DNA of 64,000 bases from Eubacteriales bacterium. GTDB lineage: Bacteria > Bacillota > Clostridia > Oscillospirales > CAG-272. The stretch is from contig JAZNJA010000090.1 of the NCBI GenBank assembly GCA_045577755.1, forward strand, positions 2,144-66,143. The letters run 5' to 3'. The position numbers and the translations under genes are program-made. How positions within the stretch are numbered: position 1 is the stretch's first letter; every line of letters begins with the position of its first letter. Of the stretch, positions 19,844 through 55,300 are shown one piece after another. Under the pieces are notes generated by a model, which was given only the letters and a program-made list of their open reading frames with translations, made no database searches and was not told the origin of the DNA.

Positions 19844-20884
19844 TCATGCCATTTTCTTCTTTTCGCGGATATACCTGACCCCCATCTGCCCGAGGTACAC
19901 CGTCTCGTAAATGACAAAGGAAATCAAAAACACCGCCAGCGATTGTAGGTAGAGATTCTCCATCTCCACGAACCGCGAAAGCGTCACCGCTACCGCCATG
20001 TGGAGTATGTAGACGTAGAAGGGCGCGGATTTGCCGATCCACTTGTAGTAGAAGCCGCACTCGGCGCGGCGGATGCAGAGGAAGAATTGGAGCAGGCACA
20101 CGGCGGCAAGGACACCGCTGACGTACATCTCGATCTTGCAGTTGGGGGTGCGCCACAGGGAGTCCTCCACCATCTGCAAGGCGAAAAATCCCACGCCCAG
20201 CACGCCGTAGATGATCTGTGCCAAACGGCTACGGGGCCACTTGATCCCCGCCAGCAGATACCCCAGACCGAAGCAGGGCAGGCCGAAGAACCAGGCGTTG
20301 CGCATGTACCGCATCTGCACCGAGGTCTCGGGCTGGAAGAAGTAGACCCCCGCCGTAAAGAAGAAGTAGCAGACGAAGCACACGGGAACCATCCACTTGT
20401 ACCACCACAGCTTCCCGCTCTTCGCCAGCAGGTAGTGAACCAGGGACACGGTGAACAGGGCGATGAGGAACCACATCTGCGCGCCCACGGTGTAGTAGGG
20501 AATGGGGGCGTTCTCAAAGAAGAAGCGGAACCAGAACAGGGAGGGGTCGTCGTAGAACAGGGTGGTCAGCAGCCAGCCCACGCTGGTGCCGTCTACAAGG
20601 TAGGCGATGACCTCATACACCGAATGGATGGCGATGCCCACCGCCATGTAGGTGGCGCACCGACGGATGAAGCCGGGGGCGCGGCCCTTGGCCTTGTCGG
20701 GATCGGGGGTGTAGAGGAAATACCCGCTGATCAGAAAGAACATGGGCACCGACAGGCGGTACAGGGGGTAGATGGGGTAGTCCATCTGCACCAGATGGAT
20801 GCAGATAACCATGTAGCAGAGGAAGAATTTGAAGAGATCGAGGTATACGTTGCGCCCCGAGGGCTTGGCTTGAGCGACGGTCAT
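19844..20884 (-). CDS. acyltransferase family 3 integral membrane protein (346 aa)
   Basis: Start trimmed to MTVAQAKPSGRNVYLDLFKFFLCYMVICIHL (AAGGAGG RBS). About 10 TM helices; the N-terminal RN.Y.D..K motif is typical of Acyl_transf_3. Confidence 0.8.
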   Translation of the reverse strand: MTVAQAKPSGRNVYLDLFKFFLCYMVICIHLVQMDYPIYPLYRLSVPMFFLISGYFLYTPDPDKAKGRAPGFIRRCATYMAVGIAIHSVYEVIAYLVDGTSVGWLLTTLFYDDPSLFWFRFFFENAPIPYYTVGAQMWFLIALFTVSLVHYLLAKSGKLWWYKWMVPVCFVCYFFFTAGVYFFQPETSVQMRYMRNAWFFGLPCFGLGYLLAGIKWPRSRLAQIIYGVLGVGFFALQMVEDSLWRTPNCKIEMYVSGVLAAVCLLQFFLCIRRAECGFYYKWIGKSAPFYVYILHMAVAVTLSRFVEMENLYLQSLAVFLISFVIYETVYLGQMGVRYIREKKKMA

Positions 20885-21014
20885 GTCGTCGTTCCTCCTT
20901 GTGCAAATATCCGCCGCTCGGATCACGCGGGTGGGGGGCGATTCGGGCGGCGGTATGGATCTGCTATGGAATTGCGGGGGGATCTGCGGGGATGCGCGTG
21001 GATGTGCGGTGGAT

Positions 21015-21887
21015 TCAGCGGATGGAAAACACCTTTTCGGCGTTCTCCGAAAGAATCATGCGGTTTTCTGCGTCGGTCAGCCCCATCTCAAAGAAGACGG
21101 CCAGATCGTCGGCCTGGGACCACATGGGGTAGTCGGTGCCGAACAGCACCTTCTCCGCGCCCCATCGGCGGATGAGAGCGGCGGTATGGGCAGGGGTCAG
21201 GGAGGTGACGTGAGGCTCAATGCCGTAGTCCTTCACCGCCGTGGCCATGCTGGAGGAGGTGTCCACATAGAGGTTTTTGAAGTCGGAGAGCCTGTCGCAA
21301 GCGTAGTCCCAGTTGGCCCAGCCTCCCATGTGGGCGCCCACCACCGTAAGGGTGGGGAAGTCGGTCAGTACGCGGTAGAGGCGGTCGGGATGGGAGTAGT
21401 CGAAGCGGGGATCCCCCATGTGCATGAGGATGGGGAGGCCATGCTCCGCGCAGAGCGTATAAATGAGGTAGGCGCGCTCATCGTCGATATGGAACTTCTG
21501 CATATCGGGATGGAGCTTGACCCCGTGGAGGCCGTGGGAGACAATATCCTCCACCGCCCCCTTCAAGTCGGGATGATCGGGGTGGAGAGTCCCCAGCCCC
21601 GTCAGCTTGCCGCTGTTTCCTTGGCTCTCGGCCTCGGATATGTCCGCGGCAATAGCTGCAGCGATGAAGCGGTTGATGGACTCCACGTGATGGGGGGTGG
21701 AGGCCACCGACTGGATCACGTAGCCGTCAACTCCTGCCGCTCCGCCAACCATCAGCAGGTCGGGTACGGTTCCCTGCCCGTGGGCGTGGGTATTGTAGAA
21801 ATGATCGGTAGACTCCACCGCACGGGCCGCGATCTTCTCGGGGTACACGTGGCAATGGGAGTCGATAACGGAATATTGACGTATCAT
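21015..21887 (-). CDS. amidohydrolase-2 family metal-dependent hydrolase (TIM barrel), 290 aa
   Basis: N-terminal VIDSHCHVYP (HxH metal motif) with later conserved His/Asp residues (e.g. LMHMGDP, GTDYPMW). Confidence 0.8.
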   Translation of the reverse strand: MIRQYSVIDSHCHVYPEKIAARAVESTDHFYNTHAHGQGTVPDLLMVGGAAGVDGYVIQSVASTPHHVESINRFIAAAIAADISEAESQGNSGKLTGLGTLHPDHPDLKGAVEDIVSHGLHGVKLHPDMQKFHIDDERAYLIYTLCAEHGLPILMHMGDPRFDYSHPDRLYRVLTDFPTLTVVGAHMGGWANWDYACDRLSDFKNLYVDTSSSMATAVKDYGIEPHVTSLTPAHTAALIRRWGAEKVLFGTDYPMWSQADDLAVFFEMGLTDAENRMILSENAEKVFSIR

Positions 21888-21898
21888 AGTGCTTGGTT

Positions 21899-22008
21899 AA
21901 GATACAAAGATACAAGATACGAGATACAAGATAGAGGCGGTTCTCCGGCCATTTTCTATCTTGTATCTTGTATCTGCCGAGCCCTGCTCGGCGTGTATCT
22001 TGTATCTC
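21899..22008. repeat. GATACAA heptad repeats arranged as a long palindrome
   Basis: Left arm GATACAAAGATACAAGATACGAGATACAAGATAG. Right arm CTATCTTGTATCTTGTATC. An embedded GC hairpin GCCGAGC-CCT-GCTCGGC, then TATCTTGTATC again. Confidence 0.7.
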
Positions 22009-22021
22009 TTTTTGTCCTATT

Positions 22022-24538
22022 TTATTTTTTCAGCCCCAGTCTCTCGGCGGCCTCTTCCCTCATCTTGTACTTGAGGATCTTACCCGCGGCGTTCATGGGG
22101 AACTTCTCCACGAAGTCGATATAGCGGGGCACCTTGTGGCGGGCCATGTGGTCCAGGATGTACTGCTTCATCTCCTCCACGGTCATGGTCTCACCCTCAC
22201 GGAGGATGATGCAGGCCATGATCTCCTCGCCGTACTGCTTATCGGGCACGCCGATGACCTGGACGTCCCGCACCTTGGGATGGGTGTAGATGAACTCCTC
22301 GATCTCCTTGGGGTAGATGTTCTCACCGCCACGGATGATCATGTCCTTCAGGCGGCCCGTGATGAGGTAGTTCCCGTCGGGACGGCGGCAGGCCAGGTCA
22401 CCCGTGTGGAGCCAGCCGTCGTCGTCGATGGTCTCGGCGGTGGCGGCGGGCATCTTGTAGTAGCCCTTCATGATGTTGTAGCCGCGGGCCACGAACTCAC
22501 CGTTGACCCCGTCGGGGCAGTCCAGACCCGTCTCGGGGTCGATGATCTTGCACTCCACGTTGGCAAAGGCGGAGCCCACGGTCTCGGTGCGGACCTCCAG
22601 GCTGTCGTAGTAGCTGGACATGGTACAGCCGGGGGCGGCCTCGGTCTGACCGTAGACCGACACGATCTCCCGCATATTCATGACCTCGGGCTGTGCGGCC
22701 TTCTTCATCAGATCCGCGGGGCAGTTGGCGCCCGCCATGATGCCGATTCTCATGTAGGAGAAGTCGGTCTTGGCAAAGTCCTCGTGCTGCATCATAGCGA
22801 TGAACATGGTGGGCACGCCGTTGAAGGCGGTGATGTGCTCGTTGTGGACGCAGGCCAGAGCGGGCTTGGGGGAGAAGTAGGGCAGGGGGTACATGGTGGT
22901 ACCGTGGGTCATGGAGGCGGTCATGGACAGCACCATGCCGAAGCAATGGAACATGGGGACTTGGATCATCATGCGATCGGCGGTGGACAGCTCCATGTGG
23001 TCGCCGATGTACTTACCGTTGTTGACCACGTTGTAGTGGGTCAGCATGACGCCCTTGGGGAAGCCCGTGGTGCCCGAGGTGTACTGCATATTGCAGACGT
23101 CGTCCTTGTGAACGGCGGCGGCCATGCGGTGGACCTCCTCCACAGGGACCTGGACTGAACGAGCCACAGCCTCGTGCCACTCCATACAGCCCTTCTGGCG
23201 GTAGCCTACGGTGATGACGTTGCGCAAGAAGGGCAGACGGCGGGCGTGGAGGGGGGTGCCGGGGCGGAGGGTCTCCAGCTCGGGGCAAAGCTCGGCCACG
23301 ATCTTACCGTAATGGCAGTCCTTGGCTCCCTCGGTCATGATGAGGGTATGGGTATCCGACTGGCGGAGCAGGTACTCCACCTCGTGGATCTTGTAGGCGG
23401 TATTGACGGTGACCAGCACCGCGCCCAGCTTGACGGTAGCCCAGAAGGCGATGTACCACTGGGGGACGTTGGAGGCCCAGACCGCCACGTGGGTACCGGC
23501 CTTCACACCCATGGAGATCAGGGCGCGGGCGAAGGTGTCCACGTCGTCGCGGAACTCGGAATAGGTGCGGGTGTAGTCCAGGGTGGTATACTTGAAGGCG
23601 TACTGATCGGGGAACTCCTCCACCATGCGGTCCAGCACCTGGGAGAAGGTGAGATCAATGAGCTGATCCTTTTCCCAGACGTACTCGCCCGTGTGAGCGC
23701 GGTTGAAGTAGAGGGTGCGGCGCTTCTTGGAGGGATCGTCAAACTGCTTCATGAAGCTGCCGAACTGGGAGAGGATGATCTCCATATCATCCAGCTCCTC
23801 GCACCACCGGGGATCCCAGACCAGGGAGATGTAGCCGTCGTAGTTCACCGAGCGCAGAGCCAGCATGATCTCGGAGATGGGCAATTCACCCTCGCCCGCC
23901 AGGCAGAACTCCAGGCCGTCCTCGGTTCTGCGGGTGTCGCAGAAGTGGACGTGACGGACGTAGGCACCCAGATTCTTGATGATCTCCTCGGGAGTCTCAC
24001 CGCCACCGAAGTTGGCGGCGGACAGCTGCCACAGAGCGCCGAAGCTGTCGCTGGCAAAGCGGTCCAAGAGGTCGCGGAGGGCCACCGACTTGCAGAACAG
24101 ACCCGAGGTCTCCATGAGGAGACACACCCCGCCTGCCTCGGCCTCGGGGAGGACACGGGCAATCAGAGCGGCCACGTTCTCGATGGCGGCCTCCACCTCT
24201 CCCTCGGGAGCGGCGGCGGTGCGGAGACGGATATTGGGGATATGGAGGCTCTCCGCCACGTCCATGCAATGGAGGATCTCGGCCTCGGCCTCGGCAGCGG
24301 TGGCAGCGTCCGAGGGATCAATGAGGCAGTCAATACAGGGGACGGTCAGCTTCTTCTCATAGAGACGGCGGAGGGTAGCGGCGGCGGCATAGTCGTAAAA
24401 CGCGCCGTCACGGCTGACGAACATGGGGCCGTGGATGTTGTGGATCTCCACGCCGGCATAGCCCAGAGAGGAGGCCATGTCGCAGAACTCGTCGAAGGTA
24501 TGATTATGCCACCCTTTGGTGGAAAAAGAGAGTTTCAT
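22022..24538 (-). CDS. fusion protein: N-terminal xylose-isomerase-like TIM barrel (sugar phosphate isomerase/epimerase family) plus C-terminal AMP-dependent acyl-CoA synthetase/ligase (838 aa)
   Basis: Residues 1-~275, MKLSFSTKGWHNHTFDEFCDMASSLGYAGVEIHN..., look like an AP_endonuc_2-type barrel. From about residue 290: FadD-like adenylating enzyme (YTSGTTGFPKGVMLTH, GEFVARGYNIMKGYY, TGDL, PMNAAGKILK). Confidence 0.85.
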   Translation of the reverse strand: MKLSFSTKGWHNHTFDEFCDMASSLGYAGVEIHNIHGPMFVSRDGAFYDYAAAATLRRLYEKKLTVPCIDCLIDPSDAATAAEAEAEILHCMDVAESLHIPNIRLRTAAAPEGEVEAAIENVAALIARVLPEAEAGGVCLLMETSGLFCKSVALRDLLDRFASDSFGALWQLSAANFGGGETPEEIIKNLGAYVRHVHFCDTRRTEDGLEFCLAGEGELPISEIMLALRSVNYDGYISLVWDPRWCEELDDMEIILSQFGSFMKQFDDPSKKRRTLYFNRAHTGEYVWEKDQLIDLTFSQVLDRMVEEFPDQYAFKYTTLDYTRTYSEFRDDVDTFARALISMGVKAGTHVAVWASNVPQWYIAFWATVKLGAVLVTVNTAYKIHEVEYLLRQSDTHTLIMTEGAKDCHYGKIVAELCPELETLRPGTPLHARRLPFLRNVITVGYRQKGCMEWHEAVARSVQVPVEEVHRMAAAVHKDDVCNMQYTSGTTGFPKGVMLTHYNVVNNGKYIGDHMELSTADRMMIQVPMFHCFGMVLSMTASMTHGTTMYPLPYFSPKPALACVHNEHITAFNGVPTMFIAMMQHEDFAKTDFSYMRIGIMAGANCPADLMKKAAQPEVMNMREIVSVYGQTEAAPGCTMSSYYDSLEVRTETVGSAFANVECKIIDPETGLDCPDGVNGEFVARGYNIMKGYYKMPAATAETIDDDGWLHTGDLACRRPDGNYLITGRLKDMIIRGGENIYPKEIEEFIYTHPKVRDVQVIGVPDKQYGEEIMACIILREGETMTVEEMKQYILDHMARHKVPRYIDFVEKFPMNAAGKILKYKMREEAAERLGLKK

Positions 24539-24563
24539 GGTAATTTCCTGCTTTCAGAAAGGA

Positions 24564-25946
24564 TCAGACGGACTGCTCGAAGACAATCTTGTTGACGGCG
24601 CTGAGGTAGGCGCGAATGGAAGCACCGATGATGTCGGTGGAGATACCCGTACCGGCGTAGAGCTTGCCCTCGGCGCGAAGCTTCACCAGAGCCGAGCCCA
24701 TGGCCTCCTTGCCCTCGGTGACGGCCTGGATCTGGAAATCGTCCAGCTCAAAGTGACATCCCATGATCTGCTCCAGCGCCTTGATCGCGGCGTCGATGGG
24801 GCCGTCTCCCATGGAGATGCCCTGGAGCTGCTCTCCCTTCTTGTCCAGCACGATCTGGGCAGAGGCGGCGAGAGCGTTTCCGCCCGAGCTGTTGACCATG
24901 TAGCTGACCAGCGTGTAGGTGGGAGGCACCTGCATAGCCACGCCCGAGACAATGGCCTCCAGCTCCTTGGCCCCCACGGTCTTCTTGGCGGCCACGCGGA
25001 CGAACTCGTTGTACACGGCCTCCACGTCCTCCTCGGACAGGTCGTAGCCCAGCTTGGCCACGGCGGCGGATACGGCATCCTTGTCATCCTGAGCGTCCAG
25101 AGTAAAGCCGCTCTCGGAGGGGGAGGCGATATTGACCGAAGCGGCGCGGTCGATGCCCTTCCCCGCTACCACGCGGGAGATCTGGCGGAGGATGCGGTGG
25201 TACTCGGTGAGCTGGAGCCCTGCGGTGAAGCCGTAGTGGTTGCCGCAGTTGCGGATGATGCCGCAGAAGTCCTCCAGAGACACGCAGGCGCCCTCCACGG
25301 CGGTCTTGACGGTGTCGGCACCCATGCGGACGGCCAGGATGGCGGCGGCGGCGGCCATGGCGTTCTTGTCATCGCAGGAGACCCCCACGGGGACGGTCAC
25401 GGTGTCCATGACCCCCTTCACGAAGGCGGCGAACTCATCGGGCATCTTCTCCCCCGTGCTGTCGCAGACGGTAACGGCGGTAGCCCCCGCCTCCACGGCG
25501 GCGGTGAGGACGGCGGTCAGGAAGGCGGGCTCGGCGCGGGTGGCATCCACGGCGCAGAACTCCACGTCGGCGCAGACCGCCTTGGCTTTCGCCACGGTAG
25601 CGGAGACCCACTCGATCATCTTGGGAGGCTTCTTATGGGCGCTATACTCCATGCCCACGGGGGACACGGGCACCTCCACGCGGAGGCGGGGGTGCTTGGC
25701 GGCGGAGATCGCCTGTACAGCGTGGTCGAAGCTCTCGGCGGTCATGCCCACGCAGACCGACAAGACACCGGCCCCCGCGAAGGAGGAGGCGGTGCGGACG
25801 AAGAGGATATCGGTCTTGGGGTTATCAATGGCGGGCAGCTCGATGACGTCTACCTTCAGCTTTTCCAGCTGGCGGCAGATCTCGATCTTTTCCTTGAAGC
25901 TGAAGGCGCAGTTTTCACGGCACAGGGTACGGTCGGCGATTCTCAT
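24564..25946 (-). CDS. 2-isopropylmalate synthase/homocitrate synthase-family protein with degenerate catalytic motifs and an intact LeuA-type C-terminal regulatory domain (460 aa)
   Basis: HMGL-like barrel plus LeuA_dimer-like C-terminus (GDGPIDAAIKALEQI...AVTEGKEAMGSALVKL). The N-terminal motif is IADRTLCRENC rather than DTTLRDGEQ, and VSCDDKNAMAAA replaces the HxHND metal site. Confidence 0.8.
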   Translation of the reverse strand: MRIADRTLCRENCAFSFKEKIEICRQLEKLKVDVIELPAIDNPKTDILFVRTASSFAGAGVLSVCVGMTAESFDHAVQAISAAKHPRLRVEVPVSPVGMEYSAHKKPPKMIEWVSATVAKAKAVCADVEFCAVDATRAEPAFLTAVLTAAVEAGATAVTVCDSTGEKMPDEFAAFVKGVMDTVTVPVGVSCDDKNAMAAAAAILAVRMGADTVKTAVEGACVSLEDFCGIIRNCGNHYGFTAGLQLTEYHRILRQISRVVAGKGIDRAASVNIASPSESGFTLDAQDDKDAVSAAVAKLGYDLSEEDVEAVYNEFVRVAAKKTVGAKELEAIVSGVAMQVPPTYTLVSYMVNSSGGNALAASAQIVLDKKGEQLQGISMGDGPIDAAIKALEQIMGCHFELDDFQIQAVTEGKEAMGSALVKLRAEGKLYAGTGISTDIIGASIRAYLSAVNKIVFEQSV

Positions 25947-26079: not shown

Positions 26080-26350
26080 AAAACAAAAACCCCGAATGTA
26101 CAAACGTACATCCGAGGACGAAATTCATTCGCGGTACCACCTCGGTTATCTCAAAGCGAGATCACCTTATCGGAGCCCATCAGCTCCTCTGTCTTGTAAC
26201 GGGACAAACCGGAGAGACTTACTTCTTTCGGTTGGGTCTCTCTGCTCGGGAATGAGACTTACTTCACCCTCTCTATCGGCTCGCACCAACCGCCGACTCT
26301 CTGAAAGCAGGACAGGCAAAGAATAATTCCTTCATTGCATTTCTGTGATG
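26080..26350 (-). promoter_or_regulatory. T-box riboswitch leader 1 (inferred Leu specifier CUC)
   Basis: Minus-strand RNA has AGAGAG, a distal loop GGUUGGUGCGA, the T-box sequence GGUGGUACCGCG (26142..26131), and a terminator CCUCGGAUGUAC-GUUU-GUACAUUCGGGG followed by UUUUUGUUUU (26117..26080). Specifier slot CUC-A at 26256..26253. Confidence 0.8.
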
Positions 26351-26356
26351 TGGTGT

Positions 26357-26385
26357 ATTATAGCACACTTTTCCCTCTTTGTCAA
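26357..26385 (-). promoter_or_regulatory. consensus sigma-A promoter driving T-box 1
   Basis: Minus strand: TTGACA, 17 nt, TGC-TATAAT (extended -10). Confidence 0.7.
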
Positions 26386-26487: not shown

Positions 26488-27552
26488 TCAGTCGATAGCC
26501 AGAGTCCAACCGAACTTGTCCTCGATCTTGCCCCACTGGATACCCGTCAGAGTATCGTACAGGTGCTGGGTGACCTCGCCGATCTTGCCACCGTTTACGG
26601 TGTACTTCTTATCCTTGTAGCACAGCTCGCCGATGGGAGAGACCACGGCGGCGGTACCGGTGCCCCAGGCCTCCTCCAGGGTGCCGTTCTCCATGGCCTC
26701 GGCCAGCTCGTCCACGCTGATGAGACGCTCGCTGACCTTGTAGCCCTCGGAGCGCAGGACCTCCAGGCAGGACATACGGGTGATACCGGGCAGGATGGAG
26801 CCCGAGAGCATGGGGGTCACGATCTCGCCACCTATTTTGAACATGACGTTCATGGCGCCCACCTCCTCGATGTACTTGCGGTGGACACCGTCCAGCCACA
26901 GCACCTGGGCATAGCCCTTCTTCTCGGCGCGTGCACCGGCACGGTTGGAGGCGGCGTAGTTACCGCCGCACTTGGTGTAGCCCGTACCGCCCTTGACGGC
27001 TCGGACGTCCTCGTCCTCGATCATGATACCAACGGGGTTGATGCCCTCCTTGTAGTAGCTGCCCACAGGAGAGGCGATGATCATGAAGGTGGTGTGATGG
27101 ACGGCGTGCACACCCAGGGTCTCGTCGTTACCGAACATCAGGGGACGGAGGTAAAGAGAGGTACCGGGGGCGGAGGGAGTCCAATCCTGCTCCATGTTCA
27201 CGAAGGCGGTCAGCACCTCCATGCCCAGCTCCTCGGGGATCTCGGGCAGGCACAGACGCTCGGCGGAGCGGTTCAGACGGCGGATGTTCTCAATGGGGCG
27301 GAAGAGCTGGACCTTACCGTCGGTGCGGCGGTAGGCCTTCAGACCCTCGAAGATCTCGGAGCCGTAGTGCAGGACCGTAGCGGCGGGATGGAGGGACAGG
27401 TTGCCGAAGGGGACGATGCGGGCGTCGTACCAGCCACGCTCGGGCTCGTACTCCATGAGGAACATATGGTCGGTAAAGATCTTACCGAAGCCCAGGGTGG
27501 AAGCGTCGGGCTTCTCCTTGGGGCAGGCGGTCTTGGTGATGGAAATATTCAT
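26488..27552 (-). CDS. ilvE: branched-chain amino acid aminotransferase
   Basis: 354 aa, class IV aminotransferase. LGFGKIFTDHMF, EGLKAYR, GGTGYTKCGGNYAAS. Confidence 0.92.
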   Translation of the reverse strand: MNISITKTACPKEKPDASTLGFGKIFTDHMFLMEYEPERGWYDARIVPFGNLSLHPAATVLHYGSEIFEGLKAYRRTDGKVQLFRPIENIRRLNRSAERLCLPEIPEELGMEVLTAFVNMEQDWTPSAPGTSLYLRPLMFGNDETLGVHAVHHTTFMIIASPVGSYYKEGINPVGIMIEDEDVRAVKGGTGYTKCGGNYAASNRAGARAEKKGYAQVLWLDGVHRKYIEEVGAMNVMFKIGGEIVTPMLSGSILPGITRMSCLEVLRSEGYKVSERLISVDELAEAMENGTLEEAWGTGTAAVVSPIGELCYKDKKYTVNGGKIGEVTQHLYDTLTGIQWGKIEDKFGWTLAID

Positions 27553-27761: not shown

Positions 27762-28295
27762 TCAGTAGTTCGCACCCAGCTCCAGAGCCTTGTAGTTCAG
27801 CTCCAGCATATCGGCGCGCTTGGCGGAGATGACCTTGGCGAGGGCGGCGTTGACGCCCTCCTCGTTGTACTCGCCCAGAGCGGCCAGAATCTTGCCCACC
27901 AGGATCATATTGCCCAGGGTGGGGATACCGTTCTCACCGGCCATGCGGGTGGCGGGGATGGCGTAGGCCTTGACGTCGGTGCGCTTCAGGGGGCGCTCGA
28001 TGAGGGAGGAATCGTAGAAGATCATGCCGCCCTTCTTGACGGCGGCCTCGTAGCGATCCAGAGAAGGCAGATTCATGGCCACCAGCACGTCGGGCTTAGC
28101 CACGATGGGAGAGCCCACCGCGCCGTCGGAGATGATGATGCCGCAGCTGGCGGTACCGCCGCGCATCTCGGGGCCGTAGGAGGGGAGCCAGCTCACGTTC
28201 TTGCCCTCGGTCAGGCCCTTGTAGGCTATGAACTTACCTGCGAACAGGATGCCCTGTCCGCCGAAGCCGGAAAAGAGAAATTCCTTGGTACTCAT
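27762..28295 (-). CDS. 2-oxoacid:ferredoxin oxidoreductase, gamma subunit
   Basis: 177 aa. [14 protein letters not shown] motif. Abuts the beta gene. Confidence 0.88.
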
Positions 28296-29063
28296 TTAGT
28301 TTTCCTCCTTCTTGGCTGCCTCGGCAGCGGCGGTTCTGTCCTTGTACACGCCCAGAGGGTAGTAGGGGATCATCTTGTCGTCGATCCACTTCAACGCCGC
28401 CTGGGGAGTCATGCCCCAGTTGGTGGGGCAGGTAGAAAGGACCTCGATCAGCGAGAAGCCCTTGCCCTCCACCTGATTCCGGAAGGCTTTCTTGATGGCC
28501 TTCTTGGCGTTGCGGATCTGCTTGACGTTATTCACGGTGACGCGCTCCAGATACTCGGGGCCGTCCAGGGTGGCCAGCATCTCGCAGACGCGGATGGGGA
28601 AACCGCACTGCTTGACGTCACGGCCGTAGGGGGAGGTCTGGGTCACCTGACCGGGCAGGGAGGTGGGGGCCATCTGACCGCCGGTCATGCCGTAAATGGC
28701 GTTGTTGACGAAGATGACGGTGATGTTCTCGTTACGGGCGGCGGCGTGGACCGTCTCGGCCATACCGATGGAGGCCAGGTCGCCGTCACCCTGGTAGGTG
28801 AAGACGATGCTGTCGGGCAGGGCGCGCTTGACACCCGTAGCGATGGCGGGAGCGCGGCCGTGGGCGGCCTCGATCATATCGCAGTTGAAGTAGTTGTAGG
28901 CCATGACCGAGCATCCCACAGGGGCGATGCCGATGGCGTTACCTTCGATCCCCAGCTCGTCCATGACCTCGGCCACCAGACGGTGGATGATACCGTGGGT
29001 ACAGCCGGGGCAGTAGTGGAAGGGGATATCGTTCAGGGCATGAGGTTTATCGAAAACGACCAT
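28296..29063 (-). CDS. 2-oxoacid:ferredoxin oxidoreductase, beta (TPP-binding) subunit
   Basis: 255 aa. YCPGCTHG and GDGD...NN TPP-binding motifs. Confidence 0.9.
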   Translation of the reverse strand: MVVFDKPHALNDIPFHYCPGCTHGIIHRLVAEVMDELGIEGNAIGIAPVGCSVMAYNYFNCDMIEAAHGRAPAIATGVKRALPDSIVFTYQGDGDLASIGMAETVHAAARNENITVIFVNNAIYGMTGGQMAPTSLPGQVTQTSPYGRDVKQCGFPIRVCEMLATLDGPEYLERVTVNNVKQIRNAKKAIKKAFRNQVEGKGFSLIEVLSTCPTNWGMTPQAALKWIDDKMIPYYPLGVYKDRTAAAEAAKKEEN

Positions 29064-30136
29064 TAGTTGTTACCTCCGATTCTGGCGGCGGTCTCCTTGA
29101 TGCTCTCCAGCACCTGCTCGGGGGAGGGGATCATACCGCCGACGCGGTTGCAAAGGGTGACGGGGGCCTTGCCCTCGGTGGCCAGCATCACGTCCTCGAT
29201 CATCTGACCCATGGACAGCTCCACCGAAATGTAGGCCTTACAGGTAGCCAAAGAATCCTTGAACGCCTTCTTGGGGAAGGGCCACAGGGTGATGGGACGG
29301 ATCATGCCCACCTTGATGCCCATCTCGCGGGCGGCGTCCACGGCGTTGCGGGAGACGCGGGAGGCGATGCCGAAGGCGGCGATGCAGATCTCGGCATCCT
29401 CCATGCGGTAGGTCTCGTACATGACCTCGTTCTCTTCAATCACCTTGTAGCGCTCGTAGCGGGCAAAGTTCAGCTCCTCCAGCTCCTCGGGAACCAGGGA
29501 CAGGGAGTTGACGATGTTGTGGACGCGCTCCAGCTTGGTGCCGGTGGTAGCCCAGGGCTTCTCGATCTTCTCGCCCACCTTCAGGGCGTCCAGAGCCACA
29601 GGCTCCATCATCTGACCCATGGTACCGTCGGCAAGGATCATGGAGGTCATGCGGTACTTGTCGGCCAGATCGAAGCCGTGGACGGTGAGCTCGGCCATCT
29701 CCTGCACAGAGGAGGGGGCCAGGACGATCATGTGGAAGTCACCGTGACCGCCGCCCTTGGTGGCCTGGAAGTAGTCGGCCTGGGAGGGCTGGATACCGCC
29801 GAGACCGGGGCCGCCGCGCTGGACGTTGACCACCAGAGAAGGCAGATCAGCGCCCGCCAGGTAGGACAGACCCTCGCTCTTGAGGGAGATTCCGGGGGAG
29901 GAGGAGGATGTCATGACACGGGTGCCGGTGGAGGCCACGCCGTAGACCATGTTGATGGCCGCGACCTCGGACTCTGCCTGGAGGAACACGCCGCCGATCT
30001 TGGGCAGCCGCTTGGCCATGTAGGCCGCGATCTCGGTCTGGGGGGTGATGGGGTAACCGAAGTAGTGGCGGCAGCCCGCGATGATGGCGGCCTCCGCGAT
30101 GGCCTCGTTACCCTTCATAAGTACCTTATCTGCCAT
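29063..30136 (-). CDS. 2-oxoacid:ferredoxin oxidoreductase, alpha subunit (VorB/KorA-like)
   Basis: Start trimmed to MADKVLMKGNEAIAEAAIIAGCRHYFGYPITPQTEI (AAAGGAGAG RBS). 357 aa. Confidence 0.9.
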   Translation of the reverse strand: MADKVLMKGNEAIAEAAIIAGCRHYFGYPITPQTEIAAYMAKRLPKIGGVFLQAESEVAAINMVYGVASTGTRVMTSSSSPGISLKSEGLSYLAGADLPSLVVNVQRGGPGLGGIQPSQADYFQATKGGGHGDFHMIVLAPSSVQEMAELTVHGFDLADKYRMTSMILADGTMGQMMEPVALDALKVGEKIEKPWATTGTKLERVHNIVNSLSLVPEELEELNFARYERYKVIEENEVMYETYRMEDAEICIAAFGIASRVSRNAVDAAREMGIKVGMIRPITLWPFPKKAFKDSLATCKAYISVELSMGQMIEDVMLATEGKAPVTLCNRVGGMIPSPEQVLESIKETAARIGGNN

Positions 30137-30141
30137 GTCGG

Positions 30142-30360
30142 TCACTCTCCTTTCTCTACCTTGATGATGCAGTCGGGGCACATGGTGGCGCAGAAGGCGC
30201 AACCAATGCAGGCCTCGATGTTCTCTGCCACCACGGGGTGGTGACCCTTCTTGTTGATCTGATCCTCAGCCAGTGCCAGCACGTGCTTGGGGCAGACGTC
30301 CACGCAAAGGCCGCAGCCCTTGCAGTTGTCGGTTTTGAAGGTCAATTTACATTTTGCCAT
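30142..30360 (-). CDS. 2-oxoacid:ferredoxin oxidoreductase, delta subunit (2x[4Fe-4S] ferredoxin)
   Basis: Start trimmed to MAKCKLTF (AAGGAG RBS). CKGCGLCVDVCP and CIGCAFCATMCP cluster motifs. 72 aa. Confidence 0.88.
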   Translation of the reverse strand: MAKCKLTFKTDNCKGCGLCVDVCPKHVLALAEDQINKKGHHPVVAENIEACIGCAFCATMCPDCIIKVEKGE

Positions 30361-30568: not shown

Positions 30569-31237
30569 TCAAAGATACTTGTTTTTCTGCAGGCCCAGGG
30601 GGAACGCATTCGGCACCTTCCCTGCCACGGCGGGGTACAGCTCCTGTCTCACGGTGGTCATGACCACGGGAAGACCCGAAAGGCCGCTGACCTCCTCGGC
30701 GTAGGCCCCGGAGGCGAGGATATCCTCGGCGGTGGTCATGGCACCCAAGTTGGAGTTGTTGATCAACCCCGTGAAGCGGATGCCCCCCGCGAACTCGATC
30801 TCCCGCAGGACCTCCATGGTGGAGGCGGCGTCGCGGGTGAGAGGGCGGTAGCAGTTGATGACCATGAGCATCTCATAGTCGTTCTCCAAAAGGATCTTGG
30901 GAGCCAGACGGCCCAGCACCAAAGCTCCGCGGTCATCGCCGCCGATATCCAGGACGGCGGTCATGGAGCGGTCGTCGGTGAGGGCGTACATCTCCTGGGG
31001 AAGGGCGGGGATATCCACGTTACTGTTGGCGTAGGCCGAGCAGATGAGGCGGATGCCCTGCTGTTCAAAGAAGGCCGCGCTGTCCTTGGTGCGGAAGTAG
31101 GGGTTGACGATATCCAGATCCGCCACGGTGACGGTGTCGCGGGACTTCTTCAGCTCGGCGGCGATGTTCACCGCCACGTTGGTCTTGCCGCTGCCGTAGT
31201 GGCCGCAGAGGATGGTCAAGCGTTTGAGGGGATACAT
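30569..31237 (-). CDS. P-loop NTPase of the MinD/ParA/CooC-like (SIMIBI) type, 222 aa
   Basis: Start at MYPLKRLTILCGHYGSGKTNVAVNIA (deviant Walker A), GGGAGG RBS 7 nt upstream. 14 nt after the synthetase stop. Confidence 0.75.
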   Translation of the reverse strand: MYPLKRLTILCGHYGSGKTNVAVNIAAELKKSRDTVTVADLDIVNPYFRTKDSAAFFEQQGIRLICSAYANSNVDIPALPQEMYALTDDRSMTAVLDIGGDDRGALVLGRLAPKILLENDYEMLMVINCYRPLTRDAASTMEVLREIEFAGGIRFTGLINNSNLGAMTTAEDILASGAYAEEVSGLSGLPVVMTTVRQELYPAVAGKVPNAFPLGLQKNKYL

Positions 31238-31251
31238 GAGGTTGCCTCCCA

Positions 31252-33579
31252 TCACAGCTTATTGCGCTGGATCTTACCGCTGGTGGTCTTGGGCAGCTCG
31301 TCGCGGAAGACCACGATACGGGGATACTTGTAGGGGGCGGTGCGCTCCTTGACGTAGCGCTGGATCTCGCGCTTCAGCTCCTCGGTAGGCTCGGTTCCCT
31401 TCACCAGCACGATGGAGGCCTTGACCACCTGGCCGCGGACCTCGTCGGGCTCGGCGGAAACGCCGCACTCCAGGACGAAGGGCAGCTCCATGATGACAGA
31501 CTCGATCTCAAAGGGCCCGATGCGGTAGCCCGAGGACTTGATGACGTCGTCCACGCGGCCAACGAACCAGTAGAAGCCGTCCTCGTCCTTCCAGGCGGTA
31601 TCACCGGTATGGTAGTAGCCGTCGTGCCAGACCTCGGCGGTCTTGTCGGGAGCGTTGTAGTAGCCGGTGAACAGACCGCAGGGGGCGCCGTCAGCCACGC
31701 GGATGCAGATCTCGCCCGTCTCACCCACGGGAACGGGCTTACCGTCGGCATCCTGCAGTTCCACCTCGTAGATGGGGGCAGGCTTACCCATGGAGCCGAT
31801 CTTGTGGGGGGCGCCGGTGAGGTTACCGATGATCATGGTGGACTCGGACTGACCGAAGCCCTCCAGGATCTGGAGTCCCGTGGCCTTCTCGAACTGGCGG
31901 TAGACCTCGGGGTTGAGGGCCTCGCCCGCGGTGGTCATGTGGCGCACCGAGGAGAGGTCGTACTTGGAGATATCCTCCTTCACCATCATGCGGAGCATGG
32001 TGGGAGGGGCGCAGAAGGTGGTGATCTGGTGCTTGGCGAACATAGGAAGAATATCCGCCGCGTCGAAGCGGTCGAAATCGTAGACGAAGGTGGCCGCCTC
32101 GCAAAGCCACTGTCCGTAGAGCTTACCCCACATGGACTTGGCCCAGCCCGTGTCGGAGATGGTCAAATGGAGACCGTCGGGATGGACGTTGTGCCAGTAG
32201 CGGGCGGTATGGAAGTGACCCAGGGGGTACTTGTGGTTGTGAGCCGCGATCTTGGGGTAGCCCGAGGTGCCCGAGGTGAAGAACATGAGGAGCAGATCGT
32301 CGCCGCAGGGGGAGTCCTCGGTGCGGTTGAAGTGGGAGGAGAACAGGGTGTACTCCTCGTCAAAGGTACGCCAGCCCTCTCGCTCGCCGTTCACAATGAT
32401 CTTGTGCTTGAGGGTAGGACAATGCTCGGCGGCCAGATCCACCTGATGGGCGGTGTCGCCGTCGGCGGTGCAGAGGATAGCCGAGACACCCGCGGAGTTG
32501 AAGCGGTACTCGAAGTCATGCTCCTGGAGCTGGTTGGTAGCGGGGATGGCGATGGCACCCAGCTTATTCAGACCCAGCATGGCGAACCAGAACTGGTAGT
32601 GGCGCTTCAGCACCAGCATGACGCGGTCGCCCTTCTTGATGCCCAGGGACTTGAAGTAGTTAGCGCACTGGGCGGAGGCCCGCTTCATGTCCTTGAAGGT
32701 GAAGCGACGCTCGGTGTGATCGCGGGAGACGTGGAGCATGGCCAGTTTCTCAGGATCCTTCTCGGCCACGGCGTCCACCAGGTCGAAGGCGAAGTTGAAC
32801 TTATCGGTGTTCTTGAAGGTAATGGAGGTAGGCGTACCAAGAGCGTTCTCGGTGACGTCGATGAACTTACGCCAGACGCGGTCGCTCTGCTGGTCGCGGT
32901 GGACCGTGGTCTCCTTCTTGGTGGCGGGGACCGCCTCGGTGGGAGCCAACTCGGGAATAGGCTCGCCCGTGGGGTTGAGGACGATGGCGTAGAACACGCA
33001 GTCCTGACCGCCCACGGCGATCATACCGTGAGGGGTATCGGAATCGTAGTAGATGGTATCGCCCGCGCTGAGCACCTCGGTATGCTCGCCCACCTGGACC
33101 ATGAGCTTACCCTCGATGACGATATCCAGCTCCTGCCCCGCGTGGGTGGTCAGCTCGATGTCGCGGTGCTGGGCCTCCTCGGAGTAGGCGGAGCGCACGA
33201 ACAGAGGCTCGGCAATACGGTTCTGGAAGGCGTAGGCCATGTTGTAGTACACCATGCCGTGGGCCTTGGCGATCTCCTGCCCCGCACCCGCGCGGGTGAC
33301 GGTGTAGGACTTCAGCTTGGGGCTGTAGCCTTCAATAATTTCGGTGACGTTGACGTTCAGCGCCAGGGCGCAACGGTAGATGAACGCGAAGTTGAGGTCG
33401 CTCTGACCGCTCTCGCAGAGGAGGTACTCCTCCACCGACACGCCGGTCTTGGCGGCCATCTGCTGGGGCTCCAGCCCCTCGATCTCACGGAGGGCGCGGA
33501 TTCGACCCGCCATCTCCTTGATCTTAAAATCCAATCCGGACATGGAGGAGGGCTCCATCGTTTTGGTTATCTGATCCAT
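31252..33579 (-). CDS. fusion protein: XRE-type HTH plus cupin plus AMP-forming acyl-CoA synthetase (775 aa), paralog 1
   Basis: Start trimmed to MDQITKT (GAAAGGA RBS). HTH (LEPQQMAAKTGVSVEEYLLCESGQ). Cupin (HAGQELDIVIEGKLMVQVGE...GDTIYYDSDTPHGM). Synthetase (FFTSGTSGYPKIA, TGDTAWKDEDGFYWFVGRVDDVIKSSGYRIGPFEIES, PKTTSGKIQR). Confidence 0.88.
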   Translation of the reverse strand: MDQITKTMEPSSMSGLDFKIKEMAGRIRALREIEGLEPQQMAAKTGVSVEEYLLCESGQSDLNFAFIYRCALALNVNVTEIIEGYSPKLKSYTVTRAGAGQEIAKAHGMVYYNMAYAFQNRIAEPLFVRSAYSEEAQHRDIELTTHAGQELDIVIEGKLMVQVGEHTEVLSAGDTIYYDSDTPHGMIAVGGQDCVFYAIVLNPTGEPIPELAPTEAVPATKKETTVHRDQQSDRVWRKFIDVTENALGTPTSITFKNTDKFNFAFDLVDAVAEKDPEKLAMLHVSRDHTERRFTFKDMKRASAQCANYFKSLGIKKGDRVMLVLKRHYQFWFAMLGLNKLGAIAIPATNQLQEHDFEYRFNSAGVSAILCTADGDTAHQVDLAAEHCPTLKHKIIVNGEREGWRTFDEEYTLFSSHFNRTEDSPCGDDLLLMFFTSGTSGYPKIAAHNHKYPLGHFHTARYWHNVHPDGLHLTISDTGWAKSMWGKLYGQWLCEAATFVYDFDRFDAADILPMFAKHQITTFCAPPTMLRMMVKEDISKYDLSSVRHMTTAGEALNPEVYRQFEKATGLQILEGFGQSESTMIIGNLTGAPHKIGSMGKPAPIYEVELQDADGKPVPVGETGEICIRVADGAPCGLFTGYYNAPDKTAEVWHDGYYHTGDTAWKDEDGFYWFVGRVDDVIKSSGYRIGPFEIESVIMELPFVLECGVSAEPDEVRGQVVKASIVLVKGTEPTEELKREIQRYVKERTAPYKYPRIVVFRDELPKTTSGKIQRNKL

Positions 33580-33610
33580 GTTTGATCCTTTCTCGGGTGT
33601 CGCGAGGCGC

Positions 33611-33920
33611 ACCAAAAGCAAAGCAAGCGCACCCGTCCCAAAGTTTCGTTACTTTGAGACGAGTGCGCATAAATCATTTATACAGCACCCGCGGTACCAC
33701 TCAAATTGCGGAAAGCTCCGCCACTCAGTCGGGTCCATCAACCCGTAGACACTAACGCGGTCTGACTCGGAGCGGGTCTACTCTCACGGGATTTTTCCCA
33801 CGGTGATTTCTTCCGCTCGGCTCGGGAGCTACAAATACCGCGACCGTGTCGGTAGCTTACACCAACCGCTACCTCTCTTTGGACCGTGCCGTGGCATCCT
33901 CTCCGTCAATGCCTTTGATA
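33611..33920 (-). promoter_or_regulatory. T-box riboswitch leader 2 (inferred Val specifier GUA)
   Basis: AGAGAG, then GUAGC-GGUUGGUGUAA-GCUAC. T-box AAUUUGAGUGGUACCGCG. Terminator GCGCACUCGUCUCAAAGU...ACUUUGGGACGGGUGCGC followed by UUGCUUUGCUUUU. Specifier slot GUA-G at 33832..33829. Confidence 0.8.
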
Positions 33921-34035: not shown

Positions 34036-36369
34036 TTACAGCTTGTTGCGCTGGATCTTGCCGCTGATGGTCTTGGGCAGCTCGTCGCGGAAGACCACGA
34101 TACGGGGGTACTTGTAGGGAGCGGTGTTCTTCTTGACGTAGTTCTGGATCTCCTTCTTCAGCTCCTCGGTGGGCTCGGTACCCTTCACCAGGACGACGGA
34201 GGCCTTGACCACCTGGCCGCGGACCTCGTCGGGCTCGGCGGACACACCGCACTCCAGGACGTAGGGCAGCTCCATGATGACAGACTCGATCTCGAAGGGC
34301 CCGATGCGGTAGCCCGAGGACTTGATCACGTCGCCCACGCGGCCCACGTACCAGTAGAAGCCGTCCTCATCGCACCAAGCGGTGTCGCCGGTATGGTAGT
34401 AGCCGTCGTGGAGGACCTCGTCGGTCTTCTCCTGGTTGCGGTAGTAACCCAGGAAGAGGCCGCAGGGAGCCTTGTCGCCCACCTTGATGACGATCTCGCC
34501 CGTCTCGCCGTCGGGGACGGGGTTGCCGTCGGGATCCACCAGCATCATGTCGTACAGGGGCGAGGGCTTACCCATGGAGCCTACCTTGTGGGGATTGCCC
34601 ATGAGGTTGGCGATGGACAGGGTAGTCTCGGTCTGGCCGAAGCCCTCCTTGATCTGGAGGCCCGTAGCCTTCTCGAACTGGCGGTAGACCTCGGGGTTGA
34701 GGGCCTCGCCCGCGGTGGTCATGTGGCGGACAGAGGAGAAATCGTACTTGGAGATGTCCTCCTTGATCATCATGCGGAGCATGGTGGGAGGCGCGCAGAA
34801 GGTGGTGATCTGGTACTTGGCAAACATGGGGAGGATCACCGAGGCGTCGAAGCGGTCGAAGTCGTAGGTGAAGACCGCGCCCTCGGCCAGCCACTGACCG
34901 TAGAGCTTGCCCCACAGAGCCTTGCCCCAGCCCGTATCCGAGATGGTGAAGTGGAGGCCGTCCTCGCTCACACCGTGCCAGTACTTGGCGGTGATGTAGT
35001 GGCCCAGAGCGTACTTGTAGCTGTGGGCGGCGATCTTGGGATAGCCCGTGGTGCCCGAGGTGAAGAACATGATCATGGGATCGTCACCGCAGGGGGTGTC
35101 GTCGCCGCGGTAGAAGTGAGCGGAATAGAGGGGGAACTCCTTGTCGAAGTTGCGCCAGCCCTCGCGGTCGCCGCCCACCAGGATCTTGGTCTTGAGGGAG
35201 GGAGACTCGACCTCGGCCAGCTCCACCTGACGGGCTACGTCACCGTCGGCGGTACAGACGATGGCAGACACCTCGGCGGCGTTGAAGCGGTACTCCAGAT
35301 CGTGCTTGACCAGCTGGTTGGTGGCGGGGATGGCGATGGCGCCCAGCTTATGGAGGCCCAGGATGGCGAACCAGAACTGGTAGTGGCGCTTGAGCACCAG
35401 CATGACGCGGTCGCCCTTTTGGATGCCCAGAGACTTGAAGTAGTTGGCGGCCTGGTTGGAGGCGCGCTTCATATCGTTGAAGGTAAAGCGGCGCTCCACC
35501 ATGTCGCGGGAGATGTGGAGCATGGCCAGCTTGTTGGGATCCCGCTTGGCGAGGGCGTCCACCACGTCGAAGGCGAAGTTGAACCGATCCTCGTTCTTGA
35601 AGGTGATCTTCTGCAAAGCCCCGTTCTCGTCCACCACGGTGTCGATGAAGGGGGTGGTGACCGTCTCGGTGGCGGGGAGCGCCTCGGTATGGACCTGGCG
35701 CAGAGTCTCCTGCACCAGCTCGGCAGACAGGGCGCTCTCACCGGGGAGGACCACCGCCATGAAAAGGCAATCCTGGCCGTCCACGGCGATCATACCGTGG
35801 GGGGTGGAGGAATTGTAGTAGATGCTGTCGCCGGCCTCCAGGTACTCCACGTTGGAGCCGACCTGGACCTTCAGCTTGCCCTCCAGCACGAAGTCGAACT
35901 CCTGACCCGCGTGCTTGACGAGATGGATGGGCTTGTTCTGCAGCTCGGGGTCGTACTCGTAGCGGACGCGGTAGGGCTCGGCGATCTTCTTGCGGAAGAG
36001 GGGGGCCACCGACATGATGCTGATGCCCGCCTCCTTGGCGGTCTCCTGGCCCTCGCCCTTGCGGGTGACGGTGTAGGAGGACAGATGGGCGGAGCGACCC
36101 TCCAAGAGATCGGTAATACCAATGCCGAAGGCCTGGGCGCACTTGTGGATGAATGTGAAGGGGAAGTCCAGCTCTCCCGCCTCGTAGGCCACGTAAGCGG
36201 CGTTGCTGACCTCGGTCTTCTCGGCCATCTCGGCTACGGTGAAGCCGCAGATATCACGCATCTCGCGGATACGGATCGCGACCTCCTGGAGCTTCGCCCG
36301 GTCGTTCGCTCGGGCATTGGCCGAAGCGGCGACCGTATCTACGGCATTCGTTCTTGTTTCTTTTGCCAT
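34036..36369 (-). CDS. fusion protein: XRE-type HTH plus cupin plus AMP-forming acyl-CoA synthetase (777 aa), paralog 2
   Basis: AAGGAGG RBS. Same architecture as 31252-33579. The C-terminal ~110 aa are nearly identical between the two. Confidence 0.88.
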   Translation of the reverse strand: MAKETRTNAVDTVAASANARANDRAKLQEVAIRIREMRDICGFTVAEMAEKTEVSNAAYVAYEAGELDFPFTFIHKCAQAFGIGITDLLEGRSAHLSSYTVTRKGEGQETAKEAGISIMSVAPLFRKKIAEPYRVRYEYDPELQNKPIHLVKHAGQEFDFVLEGKLKVQVGSNVEYLEAGDSIYYNSSTPHGMIAVDGQDCLFMAVVLPGESALSAELVQETLRQVHTEALPATETVTTPFIDTVVDENGALQKITFKNEDRFNFAFDVVDALAKRDPNKLAMLHISRDMVERRFTFNDMKRASNQAANYFKSLGIQKGDRVMLVLKRHYQFWFAILGLHKLGAIAIPATNQLVKHDLEYRFNAAEVSAIVCTADGDVARQVELAEVESPSLKTKILVGGDREGWRNFDKEFPLYSAHFYRGDDTPCGDDPMIMFFTSGTTGYPKIAAHSYKYALGHYITAKYWHGVSEDGLHFTISDTGWGKALWGKLYGQWLAEGAVFTYDFDRFDASVILPMFAKYQITTFCAPPTMLRMMIKEDISKYDFSSVRHMTTAGEALNPEVYRQFEKATGLQIKEGFGQTETTLSIANLMGNPHKVGSMGKPSPLYDMMLVDPDGNPVPDGETGEIVIKVGDKAPCGLFLGYYRNQEKTDEVLHDGYYHTGDTAWCDEDGFYWYVGRVGDVIKSSGYRIGPFEIESVIMELPYVLECGVSAEPDEVRGQVVKASVVLVKGTEPTEELKKEIQNYVKKNTAPYKYPRIVVFRDELPKTISGKIQRNKL

Positions 36370-36395
36370 GGTAGTGTCCTCCTTGGGATCGTTTA

Positions 36396-36687
36396 CGAAT
36401 AAAAAAACACACCTGCCTCAAAACACTTTGAGACGGGTGCATAACACTCGCGGTACCACTCAAATTGCGGAAAAGCTTCCGCCACTCTTCGGAATCCAAT
36501 AATTCCTATGCTCTCACGCGGCATCCACGGGAGTCTCTACTTTCATCCATGGGACGGGTTCAAGTCCTCCGGCTCGGAAGGGATGGGTCTCTCAGGGGAA
36601 TACCGTCTGCTCGCACCAACCGCCGACTCTCTGTACGCATCCGACCTTGACCGTCTTCGTCATAGCCTTTGTCTTTTTATTCGATTG
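36396..36687 (-). promoter_or_regulatory. T-box riboswitch leader 3 (inferred Ile specifier AUC)
   Basis: AGAGAG, then GGUUGGUGCGA loop. T-box AAUUUGAGUGGUACCGCG. Terminator hairpin followed by UUUUUUUAUU. Specifier slot AUC-C at 36584..36581. Confidence 0.75.
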
Positions 36688-55203: not shown

Positions 55204-55271
55204 GTTCCTTACCTTTCTGACGCTTTTCGGCGTATTTTCGACACAAATAAAAAAGTCCATGCGTAAACAGT

Positions 55272-55300
55272 ATTTTATCACATCGAGATGGATAATTCAA
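55272..55300 (-). promoter_or_regulatory. candidate sigma-A promoter of the giant protease/opp unit
   Basis: Minus strand: TTGAAT, 17 nt, TAAAAT, in an AT-rich divergent intergenic region. Confidence 0.45.

Follow-up and report, generated by a model that had tools for sequence, protein, structure and literature searches.

A gene on the minus strand of a 64,000-nucleotide stretch of a Eubacteriales genome (contig JAZNJA010000090.1; the whole stretch that was analysed is called the window here) encodes a protein of 838 amino acids in which a xylose-isomerase-like TIM barrel is fused to an AMP-forming acyl-coenzyme A (CoA) ligase. Based on its sequence and genomic context we propose, with moderate confidence, that this fusion is a short branched-chain acyl-CoA synthetase that is induced by leucine starvation and that most likely converts isovalerate to isovaleryl-CoA, which would then be turned into leucine by reductive carboxylation. 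The gene belongs to a unit in which a promoter, a leucine T-box and a LeuA-like gene precede the fusion, with the following features:

26357..26385, minus strand: sigma-70-type promoter of the Leu unit from promoter prediction (TTGACA, 17-nucleotide spacer, TG-TATAAT; 12 of 12 matches)
26111..26344, minus strand: T-box leader with CUC (Leu) specifier, from Rfam model and sequence; terminator hairpin and T-run at 26117-26090
24564..25946, minus strand: LeuA-like pseudoenzyme, 460 amino acids, HMGL-like barrel and LeuA_dimer domain, from domain scans and alignment
23714..24538, minus strand: barrel part of the fusion, residues 1-275, xylose-isomerase-like TIM barrel, from Pfam, alignment and an AlphaFold2 (AF2) model
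23666..23713, minus strand: linker, residues 276-291, of low confidence, running into a conserved pre-ligase segment, from alignment and AF2 model
22022..23665, minus strand: ligase part, residues 292-838 and the stop codon, PRK12583-like AMP-forming acyl-CoA ligase, from Pfam, NCBIfam and alignment

The original prediction had described one continuous open reading frame, and so it is: the frame runs from an ATG at 24538 to 22022 without a single internal stop; that it lies on the minus strand is a correction to the description. The predicted order of domains, a sugar-isomerase-like barrel over residues 1 to about 275 followed by a complete adenylate-forming ligase, was recovered by the Pfam scan, which assigned residues 20-241 to AP_endonuc_2 (PF01261; 73.9 bits, cut-off 31.1), residues 303-694 to AMP-binding (PF00501; 293.9 bits), and residues 745-820 to AMP-binding_C (PF13193; 63 bits). 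More than 120 protein clusters at at least 78% identity share both the length and the three domains, 155 of the 300 Clostridia genomes sampled contain a match to the barrel, for the most part within frames 820-880 amino acids long, and an independent metagenome contig (X2 record 29, 23616-24455) spans the barrel/ligase junction gap-free. Thus, the single frame is no assembly artefact. The sampled class was taken to be Clostridia on the basis of named members such as Ruminiclostridium, Alkalibacter, Saccharofermentans, Oscillospiraceae, and Acutalibacteraceae. The pre-ligase segment has three invariant residues (G284, W288, and K290), and the AF2 model of the full-length protein has a pTM of 0.60. 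Databases name the protein 'fatty-acyl-CoA synthase' and annotate the family only as 'AMP-binding protein'. At one locus (L076, G102:C1:442700-455600) barrel and ligase lie in an open frame of 968 amino acids with a gap of ~120 nucleotides between the two matches, i.e. either the linker is longer or the N-terminus is extended; the ligase at this locus is 58% identical to that of the window.

The ligase carries all core motifs of the ANL superfamily in intact form (YTSGTTGFPKG, YGQTE, TGD, GRxKDxxIRGGENIYPxEIE, and the terminal GK), and these motifs are invariant across 21 aligned sequences. Its A4 region reads PMFHCFG, i.e. it has the His of acyl- and aryl-activating enzymes, unlike amino-acid adenylation domains, which carry an Asp at A4. 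By these features the domain belongs to the acyl-CoA synthetases of the ANL superfamily. The top NCBIfam model is PRK12583/NF009233, which is matched over its full length (residues 292-837 against model positions 14-557 of 558) with 637.9 bits, under the cut-off of 832; an unfused relative beside a stand-alone barrel (L084) reaches 784.3 bits and likewise stays under this cut-off. The label 'FadD-type' used in the original prediction is too specific, as FadD models score far under their curated cut-offs (NF006523: 252.8 bits, cut-off 884). We compared 20 fusion loci, which represent 14 families. Across families of the class the ligase is 66-85% identical to that of the window and the barrel 30-55%, and both parts are under purifying selection, the median dN/dS being ~0.09 for the ligase and ~0.17 for the barrel (93 pairs; dS is partly saturated). 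Contigs of other organisms among the metagenome and RNA contigs mapped along the gene pile up on the conserved ligase part. Our PDB sequence search and the papers searched yielded no PRK12583-type member with a tested substrate.

Expression of the fusion is predicted to respond to leucine. The T-box leader scores 112.3 bits (Rfam gathering score 93), has a CUC specifier and a terminator, and recurs at orthologues, a combination indicative of a leucine-specific T-box: in 12 of 20 other loci, drawn from many families, a T-box is the immediate 5' neighbour of either the fusion or the LeuA-like/fusion pair, the specifier is CUC in each of the ten T-box alignments displayed from other loci, and the T-box core motif is found upstream of the LeuA-like/fusion pair in 68 of 74 further loci. 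The claim that the fusion is co-transcribed with the LeuA-like gene behind this T-box stands in its first half, the T-box, and is plausible in its second, as the genes are separated by 25 nucleotides, no terminator-like site is predicted between them, and contigs from RNA libraries bridge their junction (X15 record 12, 24202-24701; X16 records 22 and 23). Read-through of the T-box is plausible as well: an RNA-library contig covers the leader (26124-26347) with 0 differences, and contigs of two gut metatranscriptome libraries from one study bridge the terminator and the start of the LeuA-like gene. This RNA evidence consists of contigs, and it is weak since RNA libraries can hold DNA.

The LeuA-like gene had been called degenerate, and the alignments confirm this. 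Aligned to the top PDB match of its product, 2-isopropylmalate synthase (IPMS) from N. meningitidis (3rmj), the HxH metal ligands are replaced by S-C-D (SCDDK), and the catalytic motif DTTLRDGEQ has become DRTLCRENC. The best IPMS model gives 259.8 bits (cut-off 532) and all IPMS cut-offs are missed, i.e. the protein has neither the Arg-Asp and HxH motifs nor the curated score of a 2-isopropylmalate synthase. The metal-binding His pair and the Arg-Asp are replaced in all seven orthologues from different lineages and in 116 of 116 close homologues, and the best conserved part of the protein is its C-terminal LeuA_dimer domain, which is of the leucine-binding type. The gene is encoded in more than 535 species-level genomes, and its co-occurrence with the fusion in other genomes, which the original prediction had named as a check, is borne out: wherever the locus leaves room downstream (78 of 78), the fusion starts within 150 nucleotides of it, and in the 20-locus comparison the LeuA-like gene lies directly upstream of the fusion in six. 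Judged by its sequence, the LeuA-like partner is a conserved pseudoenzyme, and it is a candidate leucine-sensing partner of the adjoining fusion.

The Leu unit is the third of a block. The minus strand of the window holds three T-boxes (Ile, Val, and Leu), each driving one ligase, and the second unit runs from the Val T-box through ligase 2, a ParA/Mrp-like protein, and the alpha, beta, and gamma subunits of an oxidoreductase to a branched-chain amino acid aminotransferase:

34036..36672, minus strand: unit 1, Ile (AUC) T-box (36672-36426) and helix-turn-helix (HTH)-cupin-MbcS-like ligase 1 (36369-34036)
31252..33918, minus strand: start of unit 2, Val (GUA) T-box (33918-33652) and HTH-cupin-MbcS-like ligase 2 (33621-31252)
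30569..31255, minus strand: ParA/Mrp-like P-loop protein, 228 amino acids, which travels with the oxidoreductase cluster
27762..30202, minus strand: 2-oxoacid:ferredoxin oxidoreductase, alpha (30202-29063), beta (29063-28296), and gamma (28295-27762)
26488..27552, minus strand: branched-chain amino acid aminotransferase (ilvE_II, over the curated cut-off), catalysing the last step to Leu, Val, and Ile

The alpha subunit passes the VorB model NF005507 (540 bits, cut-off 399), and for both HTH-cupin ligases MbcS is the best NCBIfam model. The ligase of the fusion is only 25-28% identical to these neighbours. MbcS, the methylbutyryl-CoA synthetase of Staphylococcus aureus and the closest relative of the two that has been characterised, takes isobutyrate and 2-methylbutyrate and accepts isovalerate very poorly (PMC10026030), which offers a reason why the Leu branch should have a third ligase from a different subfamily. 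In the proposed mechanism, uncharged tRNA-Leu would under leucine shortage make the CUC T-box let transcription into the LeuA-like and fusion genes, and the ligase would form isovaleryl-CoA at the expense of ATP and CoA from an acid that the cell scavenges, which is most likely isovalerate. The neighbouring VorB-type oxidoreductase would then form 4-methyl-2-oxopentanoate by reductive carboxylation, and the aminotransferase would convert the latter to leucine; isovaleryl-CoA could also prime iso-odd fatty acids.

The gene content of the organism fits this route. Its genome, a metagenome-assembled genome of 253 contigs and 93.5% completeness, contains no LeuB (best match 31.9 bits), no LeuA beyond the degenerate copy, and a single aconitase-family gene, which has a 760-residue frame, none being LeuC-sized. 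As LeuB, a catalytic LeuA, and a LeuC-sized aconitase-family gene are all missing, reductive carboxylation would be the organism's own route to leucine. An orthologue of the VorB-type alpha subunit (at least 58% identity) is present in 20 of 20 genomes with the fusion as compared to five of 20 genomes without it. The only recurrent neighbours of the fusion in the 20 loci compared are the LeuA-like gene, the aminotransferase, oxidoreductase subunits, the ParA-like gene, MbcS-like ligases, and an Amidohydro_2 gene. In other classes of the phylum a split form exists: in seven of ten loci a stand-alone barrel comes directly after a separate ligase that is 52-56% identical, and in six of these seven the gamma-delta-alpha-beta set of the oxidoreductase comes next; the barrels of the split form are 43-47% identical to that of the query fusion L031. 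As they are linked both in the fused and in the split form, barrel, ligase, and 2-oxoacid:ferredoxin oxidoreductase constitute an evolutionary module. Taken together, the three T-boxes, the recurrence of the Leu T-box, the co-occurrence with VorB, and the weakness of MbcS on isovalerate argue for the earlier suggestion that the third ligase of the block may be the activator of the Leu branch.

Several observations weigh against a simple isovalerate ligase serving leucine synthesis. There is no T-box within 2.5 kb at eight of the 20 fusion loci, and the split-form loci carry none. The closest model with a curated cut-off, 'fatty acid CoA ligase family', is generic, and the fusion does not reach this cut-off; no sequence feature singles out isovalerate over another C4-C8 acid. 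As the genomes compared are related, the co-occurrence counts overstate independence. LeuB scores over its cut-off in none of seven genomes with the pseudo-LeuA pair as compared to ten of 13 with the fusion alone; since many carriers hold LeuB, the fusion is not only an auxotroph's device. Finally, the Glu-Asp-His-Glu tetrad that marks a catalytically competent barrel is intact, together with H173, H174, and D201, both in all nine stand-alone barrels checked and in 18 of the 20 fusion loci that come from other genomes of the sample, and the barrel is still linked to the ligase where the two are not fused.

In the window this tetrad is broken. The barrel is a member of PF01261 by sequence and by fold: its AF2 model (pLDDT 90.3) shows a standard xylose-isomerase-like fold, and the top 500 Foldseek matches all have this fold (TM ~0.75, probability 1.0). 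The solved relatives among these matches are generic members at 13-20% identity with none close, a PDB sequence search returned nothing close, and the ESM Atlas offers only 'sugar phosphate isomerase/epimerase' (0.86), which is a lead at best. The canonical positions read E143, Q171, H198, and V240, i.e. D171Q and E240V, and after position 171 SA replaces the HH found elsewhere (H173 and H174), so that the window barrel lacks the intact site. In a MAFFT alignment of 120 close homologues, Asp171 is gone in all but three (Asn, Gln, or Ser instead) and the second Glu, at position 240, in all 120 (Val, and one Thr). Among 79 barrels adjoining a pseudo-LeuA, 64 have lost both D171 and E240, and 12 have kept D171, H198, and E240. 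A metal-dependent isomerase activity of the usual kind is thus very unlikely for the barrel of the window lineage, which is kept by selection, probably for a structural or regulatory role. A catalytic barrel carrying out isomerisation, decarboxylation, or hydration of a precursor, as the original prediction had considered, is accordingly not supported for the window protein, and the barrels of other lineages in which the site is intact, such as that of the orthologue WP_137696756 from Ruminiclostridium herbifermentans, may have such a role.

These intact sites lend some substance to a different reading, namely that the fusion is bifunctional and carries out two steps of a leucine-linked route not yet described, in which a metal-dependent barrel, i.e. 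an isomerase, epimerase, or dehydratase, makes or reshapes the carboxylate of the ligase or acts on the 2-oxoacid of the oxidoreductase. The true substrate would then not simply be isovalerate, and the barrel step would have become dispensable in the lineage of the window. A second chemical step is indeed possible given the intact barrel and its persistent linkage to the ligase elsewhere, which a plain isovalerate ligase does not explain: the split form keeps the barrel beside the ligase in reversed order and next to the oxidoreductase, and in the class-level sample ligase orthologues are almost never unfused (one of 20 genomes without the fusion). Nevertheless, we consider this reading unlikely. 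D171 and E240 are lost from the window protein and from the 64 barrels mentioned above while the ligase is kept at 88-95% identity, which suggests that the ligase can work without barrel catalysis. Moreover, the 20-locus comparison revealed no recurrent sugar, inositol, shikimate, or hydroxy-keto-acid genes near the fusion, and the fold search points to generic relatives only. An AsbF-like route from dehydroshikimate to an aroyl product was dropped, AsbF ranking 17th at 17% identity, with no shikimate context and with a dead metal site in the window protein. Stand-alone barrels from the same class that are 26-32% identical have neither an adjoining ligase nor common neighbours; they are paralogues and hence uninformative.

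The supply of lipid primers is less probable still. Here the chemistry would be the same, but isovaleryl-CoA would prime iso-odd fatty acids under leucine scarcity, as MbcS does in S. aureus (PMC10026030), and would not serve leucine synthesis. Besides this precedent, both further ligases of the block resemble MbcS, and induction by a T-box at leucine shortage would fit the sparing of leucine equally well. However, the Val T-box operon holds both the oxidoreductase and the aminotransferase, which indicates the biosynthetic direction, the genome needs a source of leucine because the isopropylmalate route is missing, and no fab genes were linked to the fusion in the loci compared. It is highly improbable that the ligase is a generic FadD-like enzyme for medium- or long-chain fatty acids, serving the uptake or degradation of lipids behind a T-box that is there by accident: many NCBIfam 'long-chain-fatty-acid--CoA ligase' models match (1e-70 to 1e-125) and the database name points the same way, but all these models stay far under their own cut-offs, the Leu T-box recurs across families, and the linkage is to the aminotransferase and the VorB-type oxidoreductase, never, in the loci compared, to beta-oxidation genes. 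Finally, a catabolic block for the Stickland-type oxidation of branched-chain amino acids, in which the ligase would run backwards or recycle acids, is hardly tenable, as T-boxes turn genes on when the amino acid is lacking and AMP-forming ANL ligases are effectively irreversible and conserve no ATP, even though aminotransferase and 2-oxoacid oxidoreductase are reversible and are used catabolically in other Clostridia.

We speculate, and regard it as unlikely, that in the window lineage two dead TIM barrels, i.e. the former LeuA with its leucine-binding domain and the former isomerase barrel, form a leucine-sensing module on a live salvage ligase, and that, separately, the intact-site barrels elsewhere catalyse a second leucine-linked step. 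If true, a biosynthetic enzyme that has lost its pathway would have been recycled as allosteric feedback sensor of the salvage route replacing it.

Downstream of the fusion lie three further features:

21899..22008, strand not assigned: GATACAA/TTGTATC inverted-repeat array with a GC hairpin, between the stop codon of the fusion and the amidohydrolase gene
21015..21887, minus strand: Amidohydro_2 (PF04909) protein, a recurrent neighbour
19844..20926, minus strand: Acyl_transf_3 membrane acyltransferase, with a terminator-like site at 19834-19812

The array fills the 134-nucleotide gap between fusion and amidohydrolase gene with dense units and inverted copies, has no T-run, and varies by one nucleotide in length at 21983-21994 in metagenome contigs; a 3' stabiliser, a terminator, or an operator are possible functions. 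The Amidohydro_2 gene is found within 6 kb of the pseudo-LeuA/fusion pair in 52 of 80 loci. Its product matches no NCBIfam model, and its sole significant relative in the PDB is the uncharacterised protein 3irs, the next matches scoring 24 and 19 bits. The Acyl_transf_3 gene, linked in just two of 80 loci, is probably not part of the system. In the second unit, the ParA/Mrp-like protein accompanies the oxidoreductase cluster in many genomes (six of 20 loci in one comparison, 29 of 80 in another); it may serve the VorB-type oxidoreductase as Fe-S cluster carrier. The HTH-cupin head (~184-194 amino acids) and the MbcS-like ligase (~565 amino acids) are separate adjacent open reading frames at three other loci (L023, L032, and L035; e.g. 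L032:16444-18669). Elsewhere on the minus strand of the window there are a Gut-1 RNA (RF01706; 63735-63809, 56.4 bits, over the gathering score) and an open reading frame of 2967 amino acids (46378-55281), which is followed by further long frames on the same strand.

To the earlier description of the gene our analysis adds the decay of the metal site of the barrel and its dN/dS, the link between the absence of LeuB and the pseudo-LeuA, the co-occurrence with the oxidoreductase, the adjacency to the LeuA-like gene in all 78 loci, and the split form. Branched short-chain fatty acids are a requirement of many Clostridia that live in gut and rumen. The fusion family, which about half of the Clostridia genomes sampled carry and which is tied to a putative leucine sensor, is a concrete and testable candidate for the activation of isovalerate in leucine synthesis. 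If this holds true, it would explain cross-feeding on isovalerate, make metabolic models of uncultured gut bacteria and the prediction of their auxotrophies more accurate, and provide a worked example of pseudoenzymes, i.e. a dead LeuA and a dead isomerase barrel, retained beside a live enzyme. The intact barrels elsewhere suggest a second step. Our literature search found no paper on the fusion, none on the control of an acyl-CoA ligase by a T-box, and none that assigns a gene to the activation of isovalerate for leucine synthesis; a Geobacter genome paper among the matches has no bearing on the subject. In the 2008 T-box survey (PMC2494555) the terms 'CoA' and 'isovaler' are absent, and the displayed passages with 'ligase' all concern tRNA ligases.

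The fusion resembles several known systems in part. With the xylose-isomerase-like barrels, e.g. ketose 3-epimerases, IolI, SCO6571, the Art22 isomerase, and AsbF, it shares the fold and PF01261, and its orthologues elsewhere keep the tetrad; it differs in an identity of only 13-20% to any solved member, in the Gln and Val that take the place of the Asp and the second Glu in the window, and in the lack of a sugar or shikimate context. Synthetases of the PRK12583/NF009233 type have the same full-length ligase with all adenylation and thioester motifs, whereas the fusion stays under their cut-off and adds an N-terminal TIM barrel of 275 amino acids as well as control by a Leu T-box. MbcS is similar in principle, as it too is an AMP-forming ligase and channels short branched acids of exogenous origin to the acyl-CoA pool, but it belongs to another ligase subfamily and has no barrel, and control by a T-box is not described in the paper on it (PMC10026030). 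The partner gene has the HMGL-like barrel and the LeuA_dimer domain of LeuA, but it stays under the IPMS cut-offs, has its His and Arg-Asp residues replaced, and occurs in genomes without LeuB. Reductive carboxylation of branched short-chain acids to Val, Leu, and Ile is known from rumen and gut anaerobes, and old labelling work traced isovalerate into leucine. The window has the ligases, the VorB-type oxidoreductase, and the aminotransferase of this route under Ile, Val, and Leu T-boxes, and the fusion is a candidate for the activation of isovalerate in it.

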